Shown here: piece by piece, positions 2,441 through 11,752 of the stretch | Position numbering within the stretch: the stretch's first letter is position 1 | How the letters are laid out: each line of letters opens with the position of its first letter | IMG/VR virus record: IMGVR_UViG_3300037247_001239 | Coordinates: 1 to 64,000 of that record | Strand: one strand, 5' to 3' | Source: a virus | Length of the DNA: 64,000 bases | Translations under genes and position numbers: made by a program | The notes under the pieces: model-generated | Databases searched by the model: none | What the model was told of the DNA's origin: nothing | The model's input: the letters and a program-made list of their open reading frames with translations, nothing else

Positions 2441-3304
2441 CTATTCCTTTCCAAATAAGAGTTTCCAAATTTCGGGATTTCCTTTGTCGTACTTCACGCG
2501 ATTGGCCAATGTACGACTCTTGGCCAAATGGGTTGGTAGTTGTGTCGGGTAAATGCTGCGAGTACCCGTACCTTGTGCCTTGCCGTCCTCGTTAACGGCG
2601 GTGTCGTAGCCGATGAACAGCAAATGGTCGCACCACTCCTGCACTCGCGACCGCAACTGGCCGGTGTTTTTTGGTTGCTGTAATCGGTGTTCGTAGCGCA
2701 ACCAGTCTTCGCCGCCAGGATTGGGGACTGTCACGACGCAATCGTGGCACACACCGATAACGTGCTTGCCTGCACGCACCAGGGCATCGAGATCACCCAG
2801 GATTTGCAAAAACGTCTCGTAGACGTGGGTGTAGCCTTTGCCAAAGCCATAGCCCTCGACAGACTTCACAAATTGCCCCTTTTCGTGTTTGACGTTGGCC
2901 AGTGTCCACGTCACGGCAAAATCCTGTAGGGTTGTGAACGAGTCCACCACCACGGCGTCGTATCGCCCCGTCAATCCTCGGTCATGCAGCACGGCTCGCA
3001 CATCCTCAAACGTGCGGGGAATTATTCGATCCACGTCGAGGAACTTACTGGACTCTTCCACGTCAACAAACAAAGGAACAATTTGCACCTGCGTCAATAG
3101 CGAACACAGTTCGGTCTTACCGATACCGCCCGTACCGTAGACCACAATCCGTTGGGCACCGCGGCTGACCCCCGTCTCCACTTCCAGACGGTTCGGCTGA
3201 ATCCCTTCCGTTCCCGTAGGGACAGGACCCATTGGTCCCGTAGGCTTAGACGGCTGCGTGACGGGCGACGGCTTGGTCGCCATCGGCCCGGTAGGTTTAC
3301 TCAT
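2441..3304 (-). CDS. AAA_24/Sak4-like recombination ATPase
   Basis: Walker A VYGTGGIGKT, Walker B VVVDSFT, EGYGFGKGY motif, EWCDHLLF, HLAKSR. Confidence 0.85.
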   Translation of the reverse strand: MSKPTGPMATKPSPVTQPSKPTGPMGPVPTGTEGIQPNRLEVETGVSRGAQRIVVYGTGGIGKTELCSLLTQVQIVPLFVDVEESSKFLDVDRIIPRTFEDVRAVLHDRGLTGRYDAVVVDSFTTLQDFAVTWTLANVKHEKGQFVKSVEGYGFGKGYTHVYETFLQILGDLDALVRAGKHVIGVCHDCVVTVPNPGGEDWLRYEHRLQQPKNTGQLRSRVQEWCDHLLFIGYDTAVNEDGKAQGTGTRSIYPTQLPTHLAKSRTLANRVKYDKGNPEIWKLLFGKE

Positions 3305-4332
3305 CAGAAAGTCCTTTCAGTTCGGGATGAACATTCGATACAAACTCAAACCCCTCTGGCGCCACACCAGAGGACAAATCGGTCTTGCTGCTACATAAGC
3401 CGAAGTAGCTGCAAAATCCGCACGTATCGCGGGTAACGGTCCTGTACCACCGATTGTTTCGCTGTGCCTCGCGTAACGTCTTCTGAATGTCCCACAGTTC
3501 CGCTCGGCACTCCTCAATCTCCTGGTCCAGTCGTGGTATCTCCACGCGGGCGTAGTAGAAATCGGGCCGCTTGGCAATGTCGTCGATGATTCGCTGACTC
3601 CACTCGTCGGGCGTCATCGGTCTGGACTGGAGGACGTAGCTTTTGGCGGTGTCGCCTGTTTGGCGGGGCATACCATCTTTTTTCAACACGCGCTGACCGT
3701 CGGCATTCAGCACTATTTTCAGCCCAGTCCTATCCAGTAACGGCACCCTCGTCGGCTTGATGCTGGGTTTGCGAATCACGTCGTAAAACACCGTACTTAC
3801 ATCGTGGCCGAGTTCCCTTGCCGCATGGACGTAGATGGAGATTTGCAGGTCGTTCTGAAGGCGAAGCCAATAGTCGCTACCCAATGCCAAATCCTCGGAG
3901 GCGGTCTTGTGTTCCATCACGGCAAGTCGGCTGTCTTCCATCCGCACGATGCCGTCGATGACGCCAGCCAATTCGAAGAGCTGCGACGGTTTGCCCGTCG
4001 CGGGATTTCGCAACGGCAATCGAAACGACTGTTCGGTGGCGATTACCTTCAATTTGGAAGCACCCCATCGCCAGTCGTAGCCACTCAACAGGGCCGCCAC
4101 CATAGCACGTTCGTATTGCCACTCCAGGTCAGTCGTATGCTCGGCAAGCGATGGCGATTGCATCCTTGACATCCTTTCCCTGTTTCAGAGCGTCCAGCCC
4201 CAAATGAAACGCCGCGCCGATTCGCAGTGCCCTGGGGTCGGTTACGGGACGCAGACCCAACTCATAGGCGTAGTGGTTCCGCTTGCGGCAAATCTTGAAA
4301 CTCTGCGAACGCGAATTAGTCAGCAGTTGCAT
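3297..4332 (-). pseudogene. PD-(D/E)XK (PDDEXK_1/Cas4-like) exonuclease, frameshifted near 4130
   Basis: N-terminus (TNSRSQSFKICRKRNHYAYELG...GAAFHLGL) stops at 4129; catalytic part (EQSF, GVIDGIV, MEHKT, QISIY, CGFCSYFGLC) continues in another frame. Confidence 0.75.
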
Positions 4333-6296: not shown

Positions 6297-6704
6297 TTAG
6301 CCGGTAGGCAGCAACGTTCCGTAGTGGCGTTTCTTGTGGCATGACCGACAAAGCCATTGCACATCGTCGGAACTATAATCCTCGTGATGACCCTCAATCC
6401 TTGCTGTCCTTCTGCATACACTGCATTGCTTTGGCCGGACCTTTTTGCCCTGCTTCAGCGCTTCGGCAAGACGCGAAGCAGCAGCCTTCTTTACTTTCGG
6501 GTCTTCTTCAAATGAGATATTCCTATCGTTCAGCACTTTAGCCCCTGCCCTCGCGCTGCATGAGTACCTGCAATACTTTCCCTTTCCTCGTTTCAATTCA
6601 GAGAGGGATACCCAGAAAGATGTGCCGCAGCCAATGCACCTTTGCTTAACACAACGAAATCGACGCGAATCTCGCTTAAGTGTACGACCACCAGAATCAA
6701 TCAT
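6297..6704 (-). CDS. HNH endonuclease-like Zn-binding protein
   Basis: CIGCG...KYCRYSC N-terminus; CSVC...EGHHEDYS...WLCRSCHKKRH C-terminus. Confidence 0.75.
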   Translation of the reverse strand: MIDSGGRTLKRDSRRFRCVKQRCIGCGTSFWVSLSELKRGKGKYCRYSCSARAGAKVLNDRNISFEEDPKVKKAAASRLAEALKQGKKVRPKQCSVCRRTARIEGHHEDYSSDDVQWLCRSCHKKRHYGTLLPTG

Positions 6705-6954
6705 CAGTGTTTCCTTTCCCAACCGCCCGCCGTGCTTTCGCGGGGCAGGCCACCTCGCTTGTAAAGTGCCCCCGACAGGAATCGAACCTGCCTCGCTTGC
6801 CATTGTTACGACGGAATCGAACCGCCAGCGGGGAATGTCCCATGGCCAACAAGGGCGTCATAGGGGCCACCTCCCAGGACCCCGTTGCAACGCTCCTTTC
6901 GTTCGTCCCTCTGCTGCACGCAGACAGGAACCGCACCATTGCGGCCGTTGCAAG

Positions 6955-7526: not shown

Positions 7527-7596
7527 AACGCACGAATGAAACAGGACGCGCCGGCCGTCCGTTGCCGGCACGCCGGGGTAGATGGTTCGCTTCATG

Positions 7597-7707
7597 GGGT
7601 TCACTCGCCACCTTCAGACTCTCTGACTTCTCGGTTCACTCCTCTGCCGCAGACTCTCCGTGCCATCGGTTCACTCATTTCCCACAGACTCTCACTAACC
7701 GCGGTTA
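7597..7707 (-). repeat. TIGR-like dual-repeat mini-array (3 units)
   Basis: CAGACTCTC at 7615, 7650, 7685 alternating with (C)GGTTCACTC; 8-nt variable segments, 35-nt period; same repeats as the main array. Confidence 0.9.
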
Positions 7708-8442
7708 GTATTTGCGGACCATCGCCTTGATCTTCTCGAACCTTGCCGCCTGCTCCGCGTCGGCCAGGTCAATGGTCTTGCACTCCAACACGGCAAGGAA
7801 CGCATCCATTATCTGGAGGTTGTCGCGTTGCGTGAGCGGTCCACCTTTCTGTAATGCCAGTTTGGCTGAGGCCGAACCGGCACAGCAGTCCAGGGCTTTT
7901 TTCAGCACGCCAATAAACTTGCCGTTTACGCGGCGGTAGCTGCGGCTCTCCTTCTTCGGTGGCTCGCCCTTCTTGGGTTTCATCTCCGCCAGGCCCTCGA
8001 CAACCCGCGTGAGAATCAACCTCTCCAGCGTGACCGGGTCCATGCACAATATCTTGCTGATGCGCTTCAGGCTGTAGCCCTGCTGCTTCAGCCGATAGCC
8101 AATCCAGGCTTTGTCGCCGGGGTCCAGTTGCCGACCGTGCCTCGCGTTCAGTTCGACTGACTTTGCGAACCACTGCTTTTCGGGAAGCTTCAGAATCTCG
8201 GCCGCAATCTTCGTCTGCTTGGCCTTGCGGTGGATGAGGTAACGGTGTCGGCCGTCCAAACTCAGGAATGGATAGGGTCGTTTTGTCACCCTCACCAGTG
8301 CAATGGGCGGAAAGTTTGCACCCTGCTGGTAGGCATCCCAGTACTGGTTGACGGTAAACCAGTTGGCGTCGGCGTTCACCCGCGGGTAATACGCCGCCTC
8401 GAATCCGATATCGTCAAGCGGAATCATCGTGATTTCCGGCAT
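7705..8442 (-). CDS. ParB/Srx N-terminal-domain protein with HTH-like region
   Basis: YYPR...GANFPPI.L...LDGRHR (ParB GxxR-type box), ELNARHG..L...DK and a following helix-turn-helix-like segment; SD AAGGAG before the ATG at 8442. Confidence 0.8.
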   Translation of the reverse strand: MPEITMIPLDDIGFEAAYYPRVNADANWFTVNQYWDAYQQGANFPPIALVRVTKRPYPFLSLDGRHRYLIHRKAKQTKIAAEILKLPEKQWFAKSVELNARHGRQLDPGDKAWIGYRLKQQGYSLKRISKILCMDPVTLERLILTRVVEGLAEMKPKKGEPPKKESRSYRRVNGKFIGVLKKALDCCAGSASAKLALQKGGPLTQRDNLQIMDAFLAVLECKTIDLADAEQAARFEKIKAMVRKY

Positions 8443-8468: not shown

Positions 8469-9091
8469 AAAAACACTCGCATTTCGCAGACTCTCGGTTC
8501 TTCCGGTTCACTCTCACTCGCTATGGTTTACTCACGTGCGTCAGACTCTCTGCGGTCGCGGTTCACTCACCTGTGACAGACTCTCGGTAGTTCCGGTTCA
8601 CTCCGGCCTCCCAGATTCTCTATGAGCACGGTTCACTCGCGGTGGTCAGACTCTCCCCGCCGTCGGTTCACTCCGCCCCCACAGACTCTCGCTCGTTGCG
8701 GTTCACTCGTTGATCCCAGACTCTCGAAGAGCACGGTTTACTCCTTTCTTGCAGACTCTTCCCTCTCTCGGTTCACTCCGATGCGTCAGACTCTCACTCG
8801 TTGCGGTTCACTCACTTGTGACAGACCCTCGGCCGTTCCGGTTCACTCACAGCCAACAGGCTCTCAGCGATCACGGTTCACTCAGCCCGGTCAGACTCTC
8901 AGGAACGTCGGTTCACTCTCTTCCACAGACTCTCGCAGGAGACGGTTTACTCTCTTGGCGCAGACTCTCGGCGCTTGCGGTTCACTCCAGTCTGACAGAC
9001 TCTCGGTTTTCGCGGTTTACTCAAGTGCTTCGGATTCTCAATGGAAGCGGTTCACTCGAGCTTTGCAGACTCTCGCCGATGTCGGTTACTC
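8469..9091 (-). repeat. TIGR-like dual-repeat guide array (17 units)
   Basis: CAGACTCTC-type repeat at 8487, 8542, 8577, 8612, 8647, 8682, 8717, 8752, 8787, 8822, 8857, 8892, 8926, 8961, 8996, 9031, 9066 alternating with CGGTT(C/T)ACTC; variable 8-nt segments; starts at the stop codon of the Nop-domain gene. Confidence 0.92.
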
Positions 9092-10267
9092 CTCCCCATA
9101 CAAATGTTTCAGGGAATATCCCTCATACTCCCCTGGCCAGAGCGGCGGCTGAATCAAGTGTGCGTGTTGCTTGCCGTCCGGATGCTCGAAGATGAAGGGC
9201 GCCGGCGGCTCCTTACCCCAATACTCCCGGTACATGACGTGATGCAAATGAGACAAAAACAGCTTCACCGCCCACCGCCGGGCTCGAAAGTAAATCTGCT
9301 GCGGGGGCAACATCGGGACGCCGCTACCCGGCTGACCCTTGGGAATCTCGTCGTAGCCGTCGCCCTTCTTGGCGCAGGCCCGCACGACCTTGGGAACATA
9401 GCAACCGGACTTCCACGCATAGGCAGATGTGGCCTTGCCGACGCGATTCTCCCGCAGCCCTTGGGCAGCGTACTCCGAAAACTCGCCCGCAAGGTTCTGC
9501 TGCCACAAAGCCGCTTGCTTCTCCCACAGCAACCGCCCGTAGAAACACTTCTCCCGGTTCTTATTTTTGTTGAACGATTCGCCCAGGTGACCCAGGCAGA
9601 TCGTCTTCAACCGGCCATTGTAGGGACGGACGGAGAAAAACTTTACCAGCCCCTTGCTACCCTTCTCTGGAGCTTCTTCCTTGATGGCGTAGCCGTCGGT
9701 CCACACGCTTTGCAGCCTGACCCATTTCTGGCCGCTCCACTCCGACAGCTCTGTAATCTGCTCGTCGGTAATGGTGTCATCAATCCCAAGTTCCTTCAGT
9801 TTCTTTTGTGCGAGTTTACTGCCAGGCCACTTGAGGCTAGGGTCCAGCCCACCGAATCTCCAGATACCTCCTACCGTGGGCGCCTTGCGAATGTCGATGG
9901 TCGCAAGCAGGCCCGCCGAGATCACCGGCCCGATTCCGGTCTGGGCCAACATCCAGCGGCCAACAGCATAGCTCTTGGCAAACTCCGCCAAGAACCCTTT
10001 GATCGTGGCCTCCAGCCTGGACTCAGTGCTCTCCATCCATTCGATAAGCTCGTACGGTTCGCCCGCTAACTTTTCTGTCCTACCCTGGTGTGCGGCCCTG
10101 ATTCGCGCCCGTTGGAATGAGTAATACCTGTCCGTCAGGTAACGGGCGCCGGCGATCGAAATACCAGCCACCTTCCGTTTCAGTTCCCGCGAAAGCATCA
10201 CGGCAAAGTCACTTTCGCCGTTGCGGTCCGCGTCTTCAGGTGGGGCAGCTTCACAAACCTGCGACAT
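9086..10267 (-). CDS. TasA-like Nop-domain / IS110-related RNA-binding protein (no nuclease domain seen)
   Basis: YYSFQRARIR coiled coil, GIGPVISAGLLATID...GGIWRFGGL (IS110 Transposase_20/Nop motif), YNGRLKT, RARRWAVKLFLSHL; no DEDD RuvC or HNH visible; SD CAGGAG; adjacent to the dual-repeat array. Confidence 0.8.
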   Translation of the reverse strand: MSQVCEAAPPEDADRNGESDFAVMLSRELKRKVAGISIAGARYLTDRYYSFQRARIRAAHQGRTEKLAGEPYELIEWMESTESRLEATIKGFLAEFAKSYAVGRWMLAQTGIGPVISAGLLATIDIRKAPTVGGIWRFGGLDPSLKWPGSKLAQKKLKELGIDDTITDEQITELSEWSGQKWVRLQSVWTDGYAIKEEAPEKGSKGLVKFFSVRPYNGRLKTICLGHLGESFNKNKNREKCFYGRLLWEKQAALWQQNLAGEFSEYAAQGLRENRVGKATSAYAWKSGCYVPKVVRACAKKGDGYDEIPKGQPGSGVPMLPPQQIYFRARRWAVKLFLSHLHHVMYREYWGKEPPAPFIFEHPDGKQHAHLIQPPLWPGEYEGYSLKHLYGEE

Positions 10268-10438: not shown

Positions 10439-10468
10439 AGAATAGCAGACAGGCCACTTTCCCGTCAA
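10439..10468 (-). promoter_or_regulatory. Sigma70-like promoter for the Tas/array/ParB operon
   Basis: TTGACG-18nt-TATTCT with TG just upstream of the -10. Confidence 0.55.
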
Positions 10469-11263: not shown

Positions 11264-11752
11264 ATGGGTGCATACCAAAAGCGCAACAGGCGATTGGAAA
11301 AGCTCGGTTACGAGTCCTATGAGGAGTATCTACAAAGCAACCTCTGGAATTCCATTCGCAGCCGCGTTATGACCCGAGACCAGCAGAAATGCCGCATTTG
11401 TGGAGGTCGGGCGTCGAATGTCCACCATTGGGGCTACCGCGAACCCACCCTGCTGGGGAAGTGCTTACTGGAGTTGTGGGCACTCTGCCGCAAATGCCAC
11501 CTGTTTATCGAGTTCGAGAAAAACGGCGAAAAAGCCAAATTTGGCAGTGCTCGTAGGCGACTGAAAATACTCTGCCGTCTAAAGGGATTGACATTTGACT
11601 CGGTCAACCCGCGGTGGGATGGAAAACCACCCCCTAAACGACGAAAACGGCGGCGATGCCAATTCTGCGGCATACGAAAGACCTTGGGCACGTTCCGCAC
11701 TACAGAAAACCCTGTCTGCCGTAAATGTGAGAAGGAACTCGCAATAGTATAG
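11264..11752 (+). CDS. HNH endonuclease
   Basis: YEEYLQS..W..IR..V..RD..KCRICG....VHH..Y...LCRKCH. Confidence 0.85.
   Translation: MGAYQKRNRRLEKLGYESYEEYLQSNLWNSIRSRVMTRDQQKCRICGGRASNVHHWGYREPTLLGKCLLELWALCRKCHLFIEFEKNGEKAKFGSARRRLKILCRLKGLTFDSVNPRWDGKPPPKRRKRRRCQFCGIRKTLGTFRTTENPVCRKCEKELAIV

Follow-up and report, generated by a model that had tools for sequence, protein, structure and literature searches.

A probable phage-borne dual-repeat TIGR-TasA locus with 35-nt units and two 8-nt spacers

The question raised by this locus is how a guide array with a period of 35 nt and only 8 + 8 variable nucleotides relates to the TIGR systems described so far, whose units an earlier note on the same DNA had taken to be typically 36 nt long with 9 + 9 nt of spacer. 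The array lies in a window of 64,000 nt (positions 1 to 64,000 of the IMG/VR virus record IMGVR_UViG_3300037247_001239), which is part of a linear virus record of 74.6 kb with an estimated completeness of about 66%. The sequence was present in one sequencing run only, a marine-sediment DNA metagenome, which is its likely source. The locus probably represents a phage-borne dual-repeat TIGR-TasA system arranged as a single minus-strand operon, with the order tasA, 17-unit array, tasParB-like gene and 3-unit array in the 5' to 3' direction (Table 1). The promoter-like and terminator-like elements at its two ends were obtained by consensus scans and are at chance level: the promoter scan gave a single match in 3.7 kb against a shuffle mean of 0.8, and the number of terminator matches equalled the shuffle expectation. 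The neighbours of the locus are typical of phage early or replication genes, and positions 3297-4172, 6297-6803 and 11264-11752 of the window code for a PD-(D/E)XK-type exonuclease (phrog_1218) and two HNH-type endonucleases.

Table 1. Coordinates of the features of the TIGR locus in the 64-kb window.
Feature	Position	Strand	Evidence
Promoter-like site TTGACG-18-TATTCT, upstream of tasA	10439..10468	-	consensus scan, weak
tasA, 393 aa, predicted nuclease-less TIGR-associated protein; coiled coil and Nop domain with two insertions	9086..10267	-	
TIGR array 1, 17 units	8474..9091	-	pattern search, parsing, TRF
ParB-like gene of the tasParB type, between the arrays	7705..8442	-	PHROG phrog_1033, E 2.8e-5
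TIGR array 2, 3 units, with the repeats and the 35-nt period of array 1	7597..7707	-	parsing, TRF
Terminator-like hairpin, 11 pairs (9 G-C), weak T tract, 23 nt past array 2	7545..7574	-	consensus scan, weak

Array 1 was resolved by pattern search and parsing into 17 units on the minus strand, each consisting of GAGTGAACCG (10 nt), spacer A (8 nt), GAGAGTCTG (9 nt) and spacer B (8 nt), which add up to 35 nt. The unit table contains 8 and 8 variable columns, and TRF independently returned a period of 35 with 15.3 copies. The starts of the loop repeats (9066, 9031, 8996, 8961, 8926, 8892 ... 8542, 8487 in plus-strand coordinates) are separated by 35 nt throughout, except for one interval of 34 nt (8926 to 8892), where spacer B has only 7 nt, and one of 55 nt (8542 to 8487), which contains an extra half-unit at about 8514-8533 composed of a degenerate edge repeat, 8 nt and GA. 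This half-unit looks like a deletion product, with the similar GAG starts of a loop and an edge repeat as the end points. Altogether, 15 of the 17 units are regular, and several repeats carry point changes. Two alternating repeats with 8-nt inserts, advancing in steps of 35 nt with one step of 34 and one of 55, had already been read from the letters in the earlier note, and parsing confirmed this pattern. Among the listed matches with up to two mismatches in the 64-kb window, the 10-mer CGGTTCACTC occurred in 15 perfect copies, all of them within the two arrays; we estimate that about 0.1 perfect copies would be expected by chance. Moreover, an identical 35-nt architecture was found on six independent metagenome contigs, and it is therefore not an assembly artefact.

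The array also contains a higher-order repeat of three units within positions 8542-8830 (TRF 8576-8813, period 105, 2.3 copies, 79% identity), and several of its guides are near-copies of each other. The spacers of the units with loop starts at 8822 and 8577 differ at two and one of their 8 positions, respectively, and the A spacers of units 8787 and 8682 at one of 8. New guides seem to arise here by block duplication and point change, not by addition at the end of the array.

Both arrays begin with a partial edge repeat (GAGTAACCG in array 1 and TAACCG in array 2); at the other end, the edge-type repeat is complete in array 2 (GAGTGAACCC) and truncated to GAGTG in array 1. These array boundaries, the likeness to the SpTIGR edge repeat AAGCGAGCCA and an additional U4-A7 pair identify GAGTGAACCG as the edge and GAGAGTCTG as the loop repeat, as had been proposed before from the array ends. 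With GAG at the start and C-N-G at the end of both repeats, the third and third-from-last bases are G and C in each; the box C triplets differ slightly and read CCG in the edge and CUG in the loop repeat. The linker has 4 nt in the edge repeat (UGAA, of which U4 and A7 could form the extra pair) and 3 nt in the loop repeat (AGU). The unit has 35 rather than 36 nt because the loop linker is 3 nt long instead of the usual 4 nt.

The stop codon of tasA (TAA, 9086-9088) is located inside the first partial edge repeat of array 1, GAG-TAA-CCG (9083-9091), and the stop codon of the ParB-like gene (TAA, 7705-7707) occupies the equivalent place in array 2, TAA-CCG (7702-7707). In three related loci (L007, L089 and L109), the stop codon of the tas gene, TAG, likewise falls into the first half-edge, within TAGCC(A/G). 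Judging from these sequences, the end of the gene and the 5' flank of the first guide would thus be one and the same stretch. At the corresponding site of array 2, a perfect 16-bp palindrome (window 7696-7711) joins the end of the ParB-like gene and the half-edge ACTAACCG with spacer A of the first mini-array unit, CGGTTAGT; it may be meaningless, as 64 kb of sequence should contain about one palindrome of this kind by chance.

Long plus-strand open reading frames cross the array (8622-9152 and 8710-9195), as would be the case if the repeats were not guides at all and belonged to a coding repeat, a CRISPR array or some plus-strand feature. However, 35 is not divisible by 3, a CRISPR array would not consist of two different short repeats that alternate around 8-nt inserts, and the array is placed directly 3' of the gene for a Tas-fold protein, on the same strand and with repeats closely similar to those of the experimentally processed SpTIGR array. 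We consider an explanation of this kind extremely improbable, and the unit table, the comparison with SpTIGR and the Foldseek search (see below) effectively refute it. The proposal of the earlier note that a TIGR-type dual-repeat array is present on the transcribed strand is thereby borne out, the array being on the minus strand like the Tas-fold gene.

The product of the upstream gene, which shares only 13-15% identity with the Tas proteins of solved structure, was assigned by sequence, profile and structure comparisons. A phmmer search against the PDB sequences matched it to TaTasR (9mty, E 2e-4) and SpTasH, and hhalign aligned it to SpTasH with a probability of 92.9%. The AlphaFold2 model, which was calculated with 25 homologues, reached a mean pLDDT of 88.5 and is all-helical from residue 16 onwards, residues 1-15 being disordered. 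When this model was compared with the PDB by Foldseek, the top ten matches were all TasH or TasR chains with a probability of 1.00, followed by the IS621 bridge-RNA recombinase. No nuclease-domain family (HNH, RuvC) was present among the Pfam matches of the protein at E <= 0.1, and its homologues begin at the same point as the window protein. The gene is thus predicted to code for a nuclease-less Tas protein of the TasA type; TasA proteins have been shown to repress transcription under the guidance of an RNA (10.64898/2026.09.09.750476). The Nop domain of the model contains two insertions relative to SpTasH (residues ~147-214 and 286-320, as given by the hhalign gaps), which are both modelled as confident helices, and the first of which is found in part of the family only.

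We obtained 1354 homologues of TasA, almost all of them unnamed and many encoded on viral contigs. A search of metagenome contigs with the single protein and a search of cellular genomes with a clade-specific alignment gave no match, and a broad alignment recovered from cellular genomes of Acidobacteriota, Chloroflexota and other phyla only distant TasA proteins, none of them above 37% along most of the length. The exact repeat pattern yielded 0 matches in IMG/VR.

The gene between the two arrays, which is encoded on the same strand, was recognised by its similarity to a PHROG family of ParB-like partition proteins (Table 1), and its translation contains a DGRHR motif. An operon of tasA and tasParB with dual-repeat arrays downstream of and between the genes has been reported (Faure et al. 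2025, PMC12045711), and by its gene order the locus belongs to this operon type. No homologue of the window ParB-like protein was detected next to tas in 160 related loci, and a motif scan of the same loci found other ParB-like genes in 3 of them only.

With the array and its protein assigned, the geometry of the guide can be compared with that of the characterised systems. The tigRNAs of TaTasR and FpTasA have 36 nt and 9-nt spacers, and SpTIGR provides only 16 variable nucleotides (PMC12045711); SpTasH was reported to use an 8-nt spacer and to form a heteroduplex of 8 bp, which is 1 bp below the 9 bp of TaTasR and PlTasA (10.64898/2026.08.11.744272). We read the SpTIGR array from NC_020844 as AAGCGAGCCA-N8-AAGACAACCA-N8, corresponding to 10 + 8 + 10 + 8 = 36 nt. 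Because SpTIGR has 16 variable nucleotides, SpTasH pairs over 8 bp and most of the relatives surveyed below have 8 + 8 nt, the spacer geometry of the window array is the usual one in this branch, the sole difference being a connector between the spacers that has 1 nt less. The view that 8 + 8 nt are non-canonical compared with a typical 36-nt unit with 9 + 9 nt did therefore not hold, as this geometry is published for SpTIGR and is the modal one among TasA relatives. The loop of TasR has been described as a tetraloop-like connector without sequence-specific protein contacts (PMC12045711), so by analogy it is plausible that one base may be lost from the loop without altering the presentation of the spacers.

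The survey covered 80 IMG/VR loci and 80 metagenome loci encoding TasA relatives, in which arrays were detected by autocorrelation at lags of 30-45 and the units were then stacked. For the 94 non-identical TasA proteins with a detectable array, including that of the window, the periods were 36 nt in 75, 37 nt in 8, 35 nt in 7, 34 nt in 3 and 38 nt in 1, so that 19 of the 94 deviate from 36 nt. The modal structure of the units was 10/8/10/8, and the other periods were built as 10/8/9/8 (35 nt), 10/8/8/8 (34 nt), 11/8/10/8 (37 nt) and 10/8/12/8 (38 nt). As the automatic column calls were noisy, nine arrays were inspected by hand, and all of these had 8-nt spacers throughout. The 8 + 8 arrangement is thus modal in the TasA family, with the variation of the period confined to the repeats. 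Nearly all repeats of the relatives have GA(G) at their start and C-C-(A/G), or a variant of it, at their end. In 82 of the 94 distinct consensus repeats, pairing is possible between the third base and the third-from-last one (G-C in 66, A-U or U-A in 14 and G-U in 2). This covarying pair is the box C/box D pair described for TasR (PMC12045711). The length of a repeat is set by the linker between the boxes, which comprises 2 to 6 nt.

The conservation of these flanks also bears on the length of the guides. If the invariant G next to each spacer (the first of GAG or the last of CCG/CUG) paired with the DNA, the guide halves would really have 9 nt and impose fixed bases on all targets, and the 9 + 9 geometry of TaTasR, FpTasA and PlTasA would be kept. 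Such a reading agrees with the 9-bp heteroduplexes of TaTasR and PlTasA and with the invariance of the flanking bases in the window array. However, duplexes of 8 bp are formed by SpTIGR, which among the characterised systems examined has the repeats most similar to those of the window, with a 10-nt edge and 8 variable nt, and GAG and CC(A/G) are conserved in most arrays of the family whatever their spacers and contain the covarying box pair, which is the behaviour of a repeat and not of a guide. We regard guide halves of 9 nt as unlikely and, by analogy to SpTIGR, favour a 16-bp reading (8 + 8) over one with an invariant G in each spacer.

The distribution of the short loop was followed on a quick maximum-likelihood tree of the 94 proteins, which carries SH-aLRT support values only, gives the window protein a long branch, and clusters the period labels partly via near-copies. 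A split with an SH-aLRT support of 100 separates 74 rows, 71 of which have 36-nt arrays, from 20 rows whose arrays comprise eight of 37 nt, seven of 35 nt, four of 36 nt and one of 34 nt. The window falls into a subclade of 12 rows within the latter group (SH-aLRT 97), which contains all seven 35-nt arrays. Four other members (L001, L086, L101 and L102) reach 36 nt by 11 + 8 + 9 + 8, unlike the usual build of 36-nt units, and L007 has 10 + 8 + 8 + 8 = 34 nt. Because eleven members share a loop repeat of 9 nt and L007 has one of 8 nt, the short loop is a common trait of the subclade, and the edge repeat decides whether the unit comprises 35 or 36 nt. The suggestion of a distinct subfamily in the earlier note was well founded in this respect, since the 35-nt unit marks a supported clade of TasA proteins with loops of 9 nt, or 8 nt in one case.

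These data bear on the length rule proposed for dual-repeat guides. According to Xu et al. (10.64898/2026.09.09.750476), dual-repeat tigRNAs are uniform with a fixed length of 36 nt, which positions the cleavage site for a Tyr/His dyad. The window unit of 35 nt departs from this uniform 36-nt feature, and Faure et al. allow repeats of 8-12 nt (PMC12045711), an envelope within which the observed variation in length stays. Because 19 of the 94 relatives deviate from 36 nt and repeats of 8-12 nt are allowed in the published definition, a unit of 36 nt is not truly defining for dual-repeat TIGR-Tas systems, and the locus and its clade demonstrate that the rule has exceptions. The array finder of Xu et al. 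is seeded on intervals separated by exactly 4 bp (10.64898/2026.09.09.750476), a procedure which, on our reading of its description, would fail to link the units of a 35-nt array, where gaps of 4 and 3 bp alternate. On this description, such arrays may have been under-counted.

Taking these observations together, we tentatively propose, at somewhat less than even chances, that one lineage of phage TasA systems varies the loop linker and sometimes the edge repeat, resulting in units of 34-38 nt with the 8 + 8 spacers fixed, and that some of its members keep 36 nt by combining an 11-nt edge with a 9-nt loop. The fixed 36-nt length would then be partly a detection effect, and the frequent Phe in place of a catalytic Tyr (see below) would hint at a different maturation. 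The locus and its clade modestly qualify the published statement of a fixed 36-nt length for dual-repeat guides, and array finders should be period-agnostic. The connector between the guide halves loses or gains bases at unchanged spacer length, which is useful for the design of minimal tigRNAs.

SpTasH matures its own RNA by means of Y289 and H296, and help of host factors in Tas-dependent processing has also been discussed (PMC13421893). His368 of the window TasA corresponds to H296 and is invariant in two alignments, and the position of the catalytic Tyr289 is occupied by Phe358 (encoded at about 9194-9196 on the minus strand). Both equivalences are based on a profile alignment and the C-terminal motifs of relatives, with modest confidence in the alignment of the tail. 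Most relatives have Tyr at this position, a few have Trp, and Phe is present in the window protein, L083, L084, L001, L002 and others, and the exchange of Tyr for Phe does not follow the array period. Because Phe358 stands at the position of Tyr289, self-processing as in SpTasH is uncertain; processing by TasA itself may be altered or aided by host enzymes, and the frequency of Phe in the lineage of the window hints at another route of maturation. The substitution of Tyr by Phe in the processing dyad represents a natural test of tigRNA maturation.

The missing Tyr could also point to a decaying or non-autonomous array, a relic in which F358, which aligns with Y289 of SpTasH, blocks maturation and the irregular units reflect erosion; the single 34-nt unit, the truncated unit and the point changes in several repeats are compatible with this. 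Yet 15 of the 17 units are regular, the reading frame of tasA is intact and retains the invariant H368, and Phe is also found in relatives with long regular arrays, such as L084, whose array has at least 23 units. Moreover, Tas-dependent processing aided by host factors, as discussed in the literature, would leave room for maturation in spite of the substitution. We therefore judge a relic to be unlikely and favour the interpretation of the locus as a TIGR-TasA guide system.

By analogy with the characterised systems, a TasA dimer would bind the transcript of the array, and cleavage at the centre of each edge repeat would release 35-nt tigRNAs consisting of AACCG, spacer A (8 nt), GAGAGUCUG, spacer B (8 nt) and GAGUG. 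In each repeat, the G-C pair of the third and third-from-last bases would form the box D/box C pair and the bases between them a free linker. Each 8-nt spacer would then pair with 8 nt of opposite strands in adjacent half-sites, giving 16 bp in total, as for SpTasH. Because TasA has no nuclease domain, the likely outcome would be RNA-guided binding of DNA, and the ParB-like protein may take part in the resulting repression or blocking. A role in the competition with other mobile elements or in the control of host genes may be presumed from the description of TasA as an RNA-guided repressor (10.64898/2026.09.09.750476) and from the proposal in the literature that mobile elements compete with one another (PMC12045711).

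A bipartite target search, as recommended in the earlier note, was performed with the half-sites in both orders, i.e., spacer A followed by the reverse complement of spacer B, and the reverse complement of spacer B followed by spacer A, with gaps of 0-3. The 8-nt 3' overhang and the C-5 rule, both published, led us to the former order, which is the opposite of that given in the note. Within the phage's own 74.6 kb, none of the 20 guides matched with up to one mismatch in either order at gaps 0-3, and matches with two mismatches were at chance level. When IMG/VR was scanned with one guide (loop start 8822), we obtained 26 matches in the order spacer A plus reverse complement of spacer B and 8 in the opposite order. 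The 14 gap-0 matches of the former order fell into two unrelated families of virion genes, both encoding HHKWPF, so that after merging of homologous matches the scan of IMG/VR with this guide gave counts consistent with chance and no enrichment (2 independent events compared with 1-6 in the other classes). The two HHKWPF families (L164-L185 in IMG/VR, with proteins of ~500 aa and ~225 aa) share an identical 16-nt sequence that equals spacer A plus the reverse complement of spacer B of guide 8822. We judge this match to be due to chance, even though it is the sole exact natural match found. A variant of the HHKWPF site as a target of the sister guide (loop 8577) was rejected, because it would place a stop codon in that frame. 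All guides except that with the 7-nt spacer B, 19 in total, were further compared with 1.3 Mb of fetched loci, which gave 8 matches with up to one mismatch, in unrelated contexts, where about 3 were expected.

The closest known systems include the clade relatives on metagenome contigs (L083, L084, L087-L090, L001, L086, L101/L102 and L007), whose TasA proteins are 42-55% identical to that of the window. They share the loop type GAG-NNU-CNN of 9 nt (8 nt in L007) and the 8-nt spacers, and the loop repeat of L083 and L084 is exactly the window's GAGAGTCTG; their edge repeats have 10 or 11 nt, resulting in units of 35 or 36 nt (34 nt in L007). The fetched DNA of their contigs contained no ParB-like gene of the window type. 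The systems of TaTasR and FpTasA have the same succession of edge, spacer A, loop and spacer B with box C and box D flanking the spacers, and their RNA is processed in the edge repeat, the site which we propose for the window by analogy. They differ by their 9-nt spacers and repeats of about 9 nt (UG...CCA), whereas the window has 8-nt spacers and repeats of 10 and 9 nt (GAG...CNG).

The SpTIGR-TasH system of Salicola phage CGphi29 (NC_020844) is also phage-borne, with a dual-repeat array downstream of tas, and shares with the window an edge repeat of 10 nt (AAGCGAGCCA versus GAGTGAACCG), two 8-nt spacers, the pair of third and third-from-last bases, the fold of coiled coil and Nop domain and a C-terminal His (H296 or H368). 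In contrast, its loop repeat has 10 nt instead of 9 nt, resulting in units of 36 versus 35 nt, and SpTasH carries an N-terminal HNH nuclease and the catalytic Tyr289, whereas the window TasA lacks a nuclease, has Phe at this position and contains the two insertions in its Nop domain. Finally, the published TasA-tasParB operons (PMC12045711, fig. S14 and Methods) agree with the window in that a nuclease-less TasA is combined with a ParB-like gene, that dual-repeat arrays lie both between the two genes and downstream of them, and that the repeats have about 10 nt; they are described there with 10-nt repeats and without mention of 35-nt units, unlike the window. The kind of system is known, and the locus is a further phage example of TIGR-TasA-tasParB, not a new mechanism.
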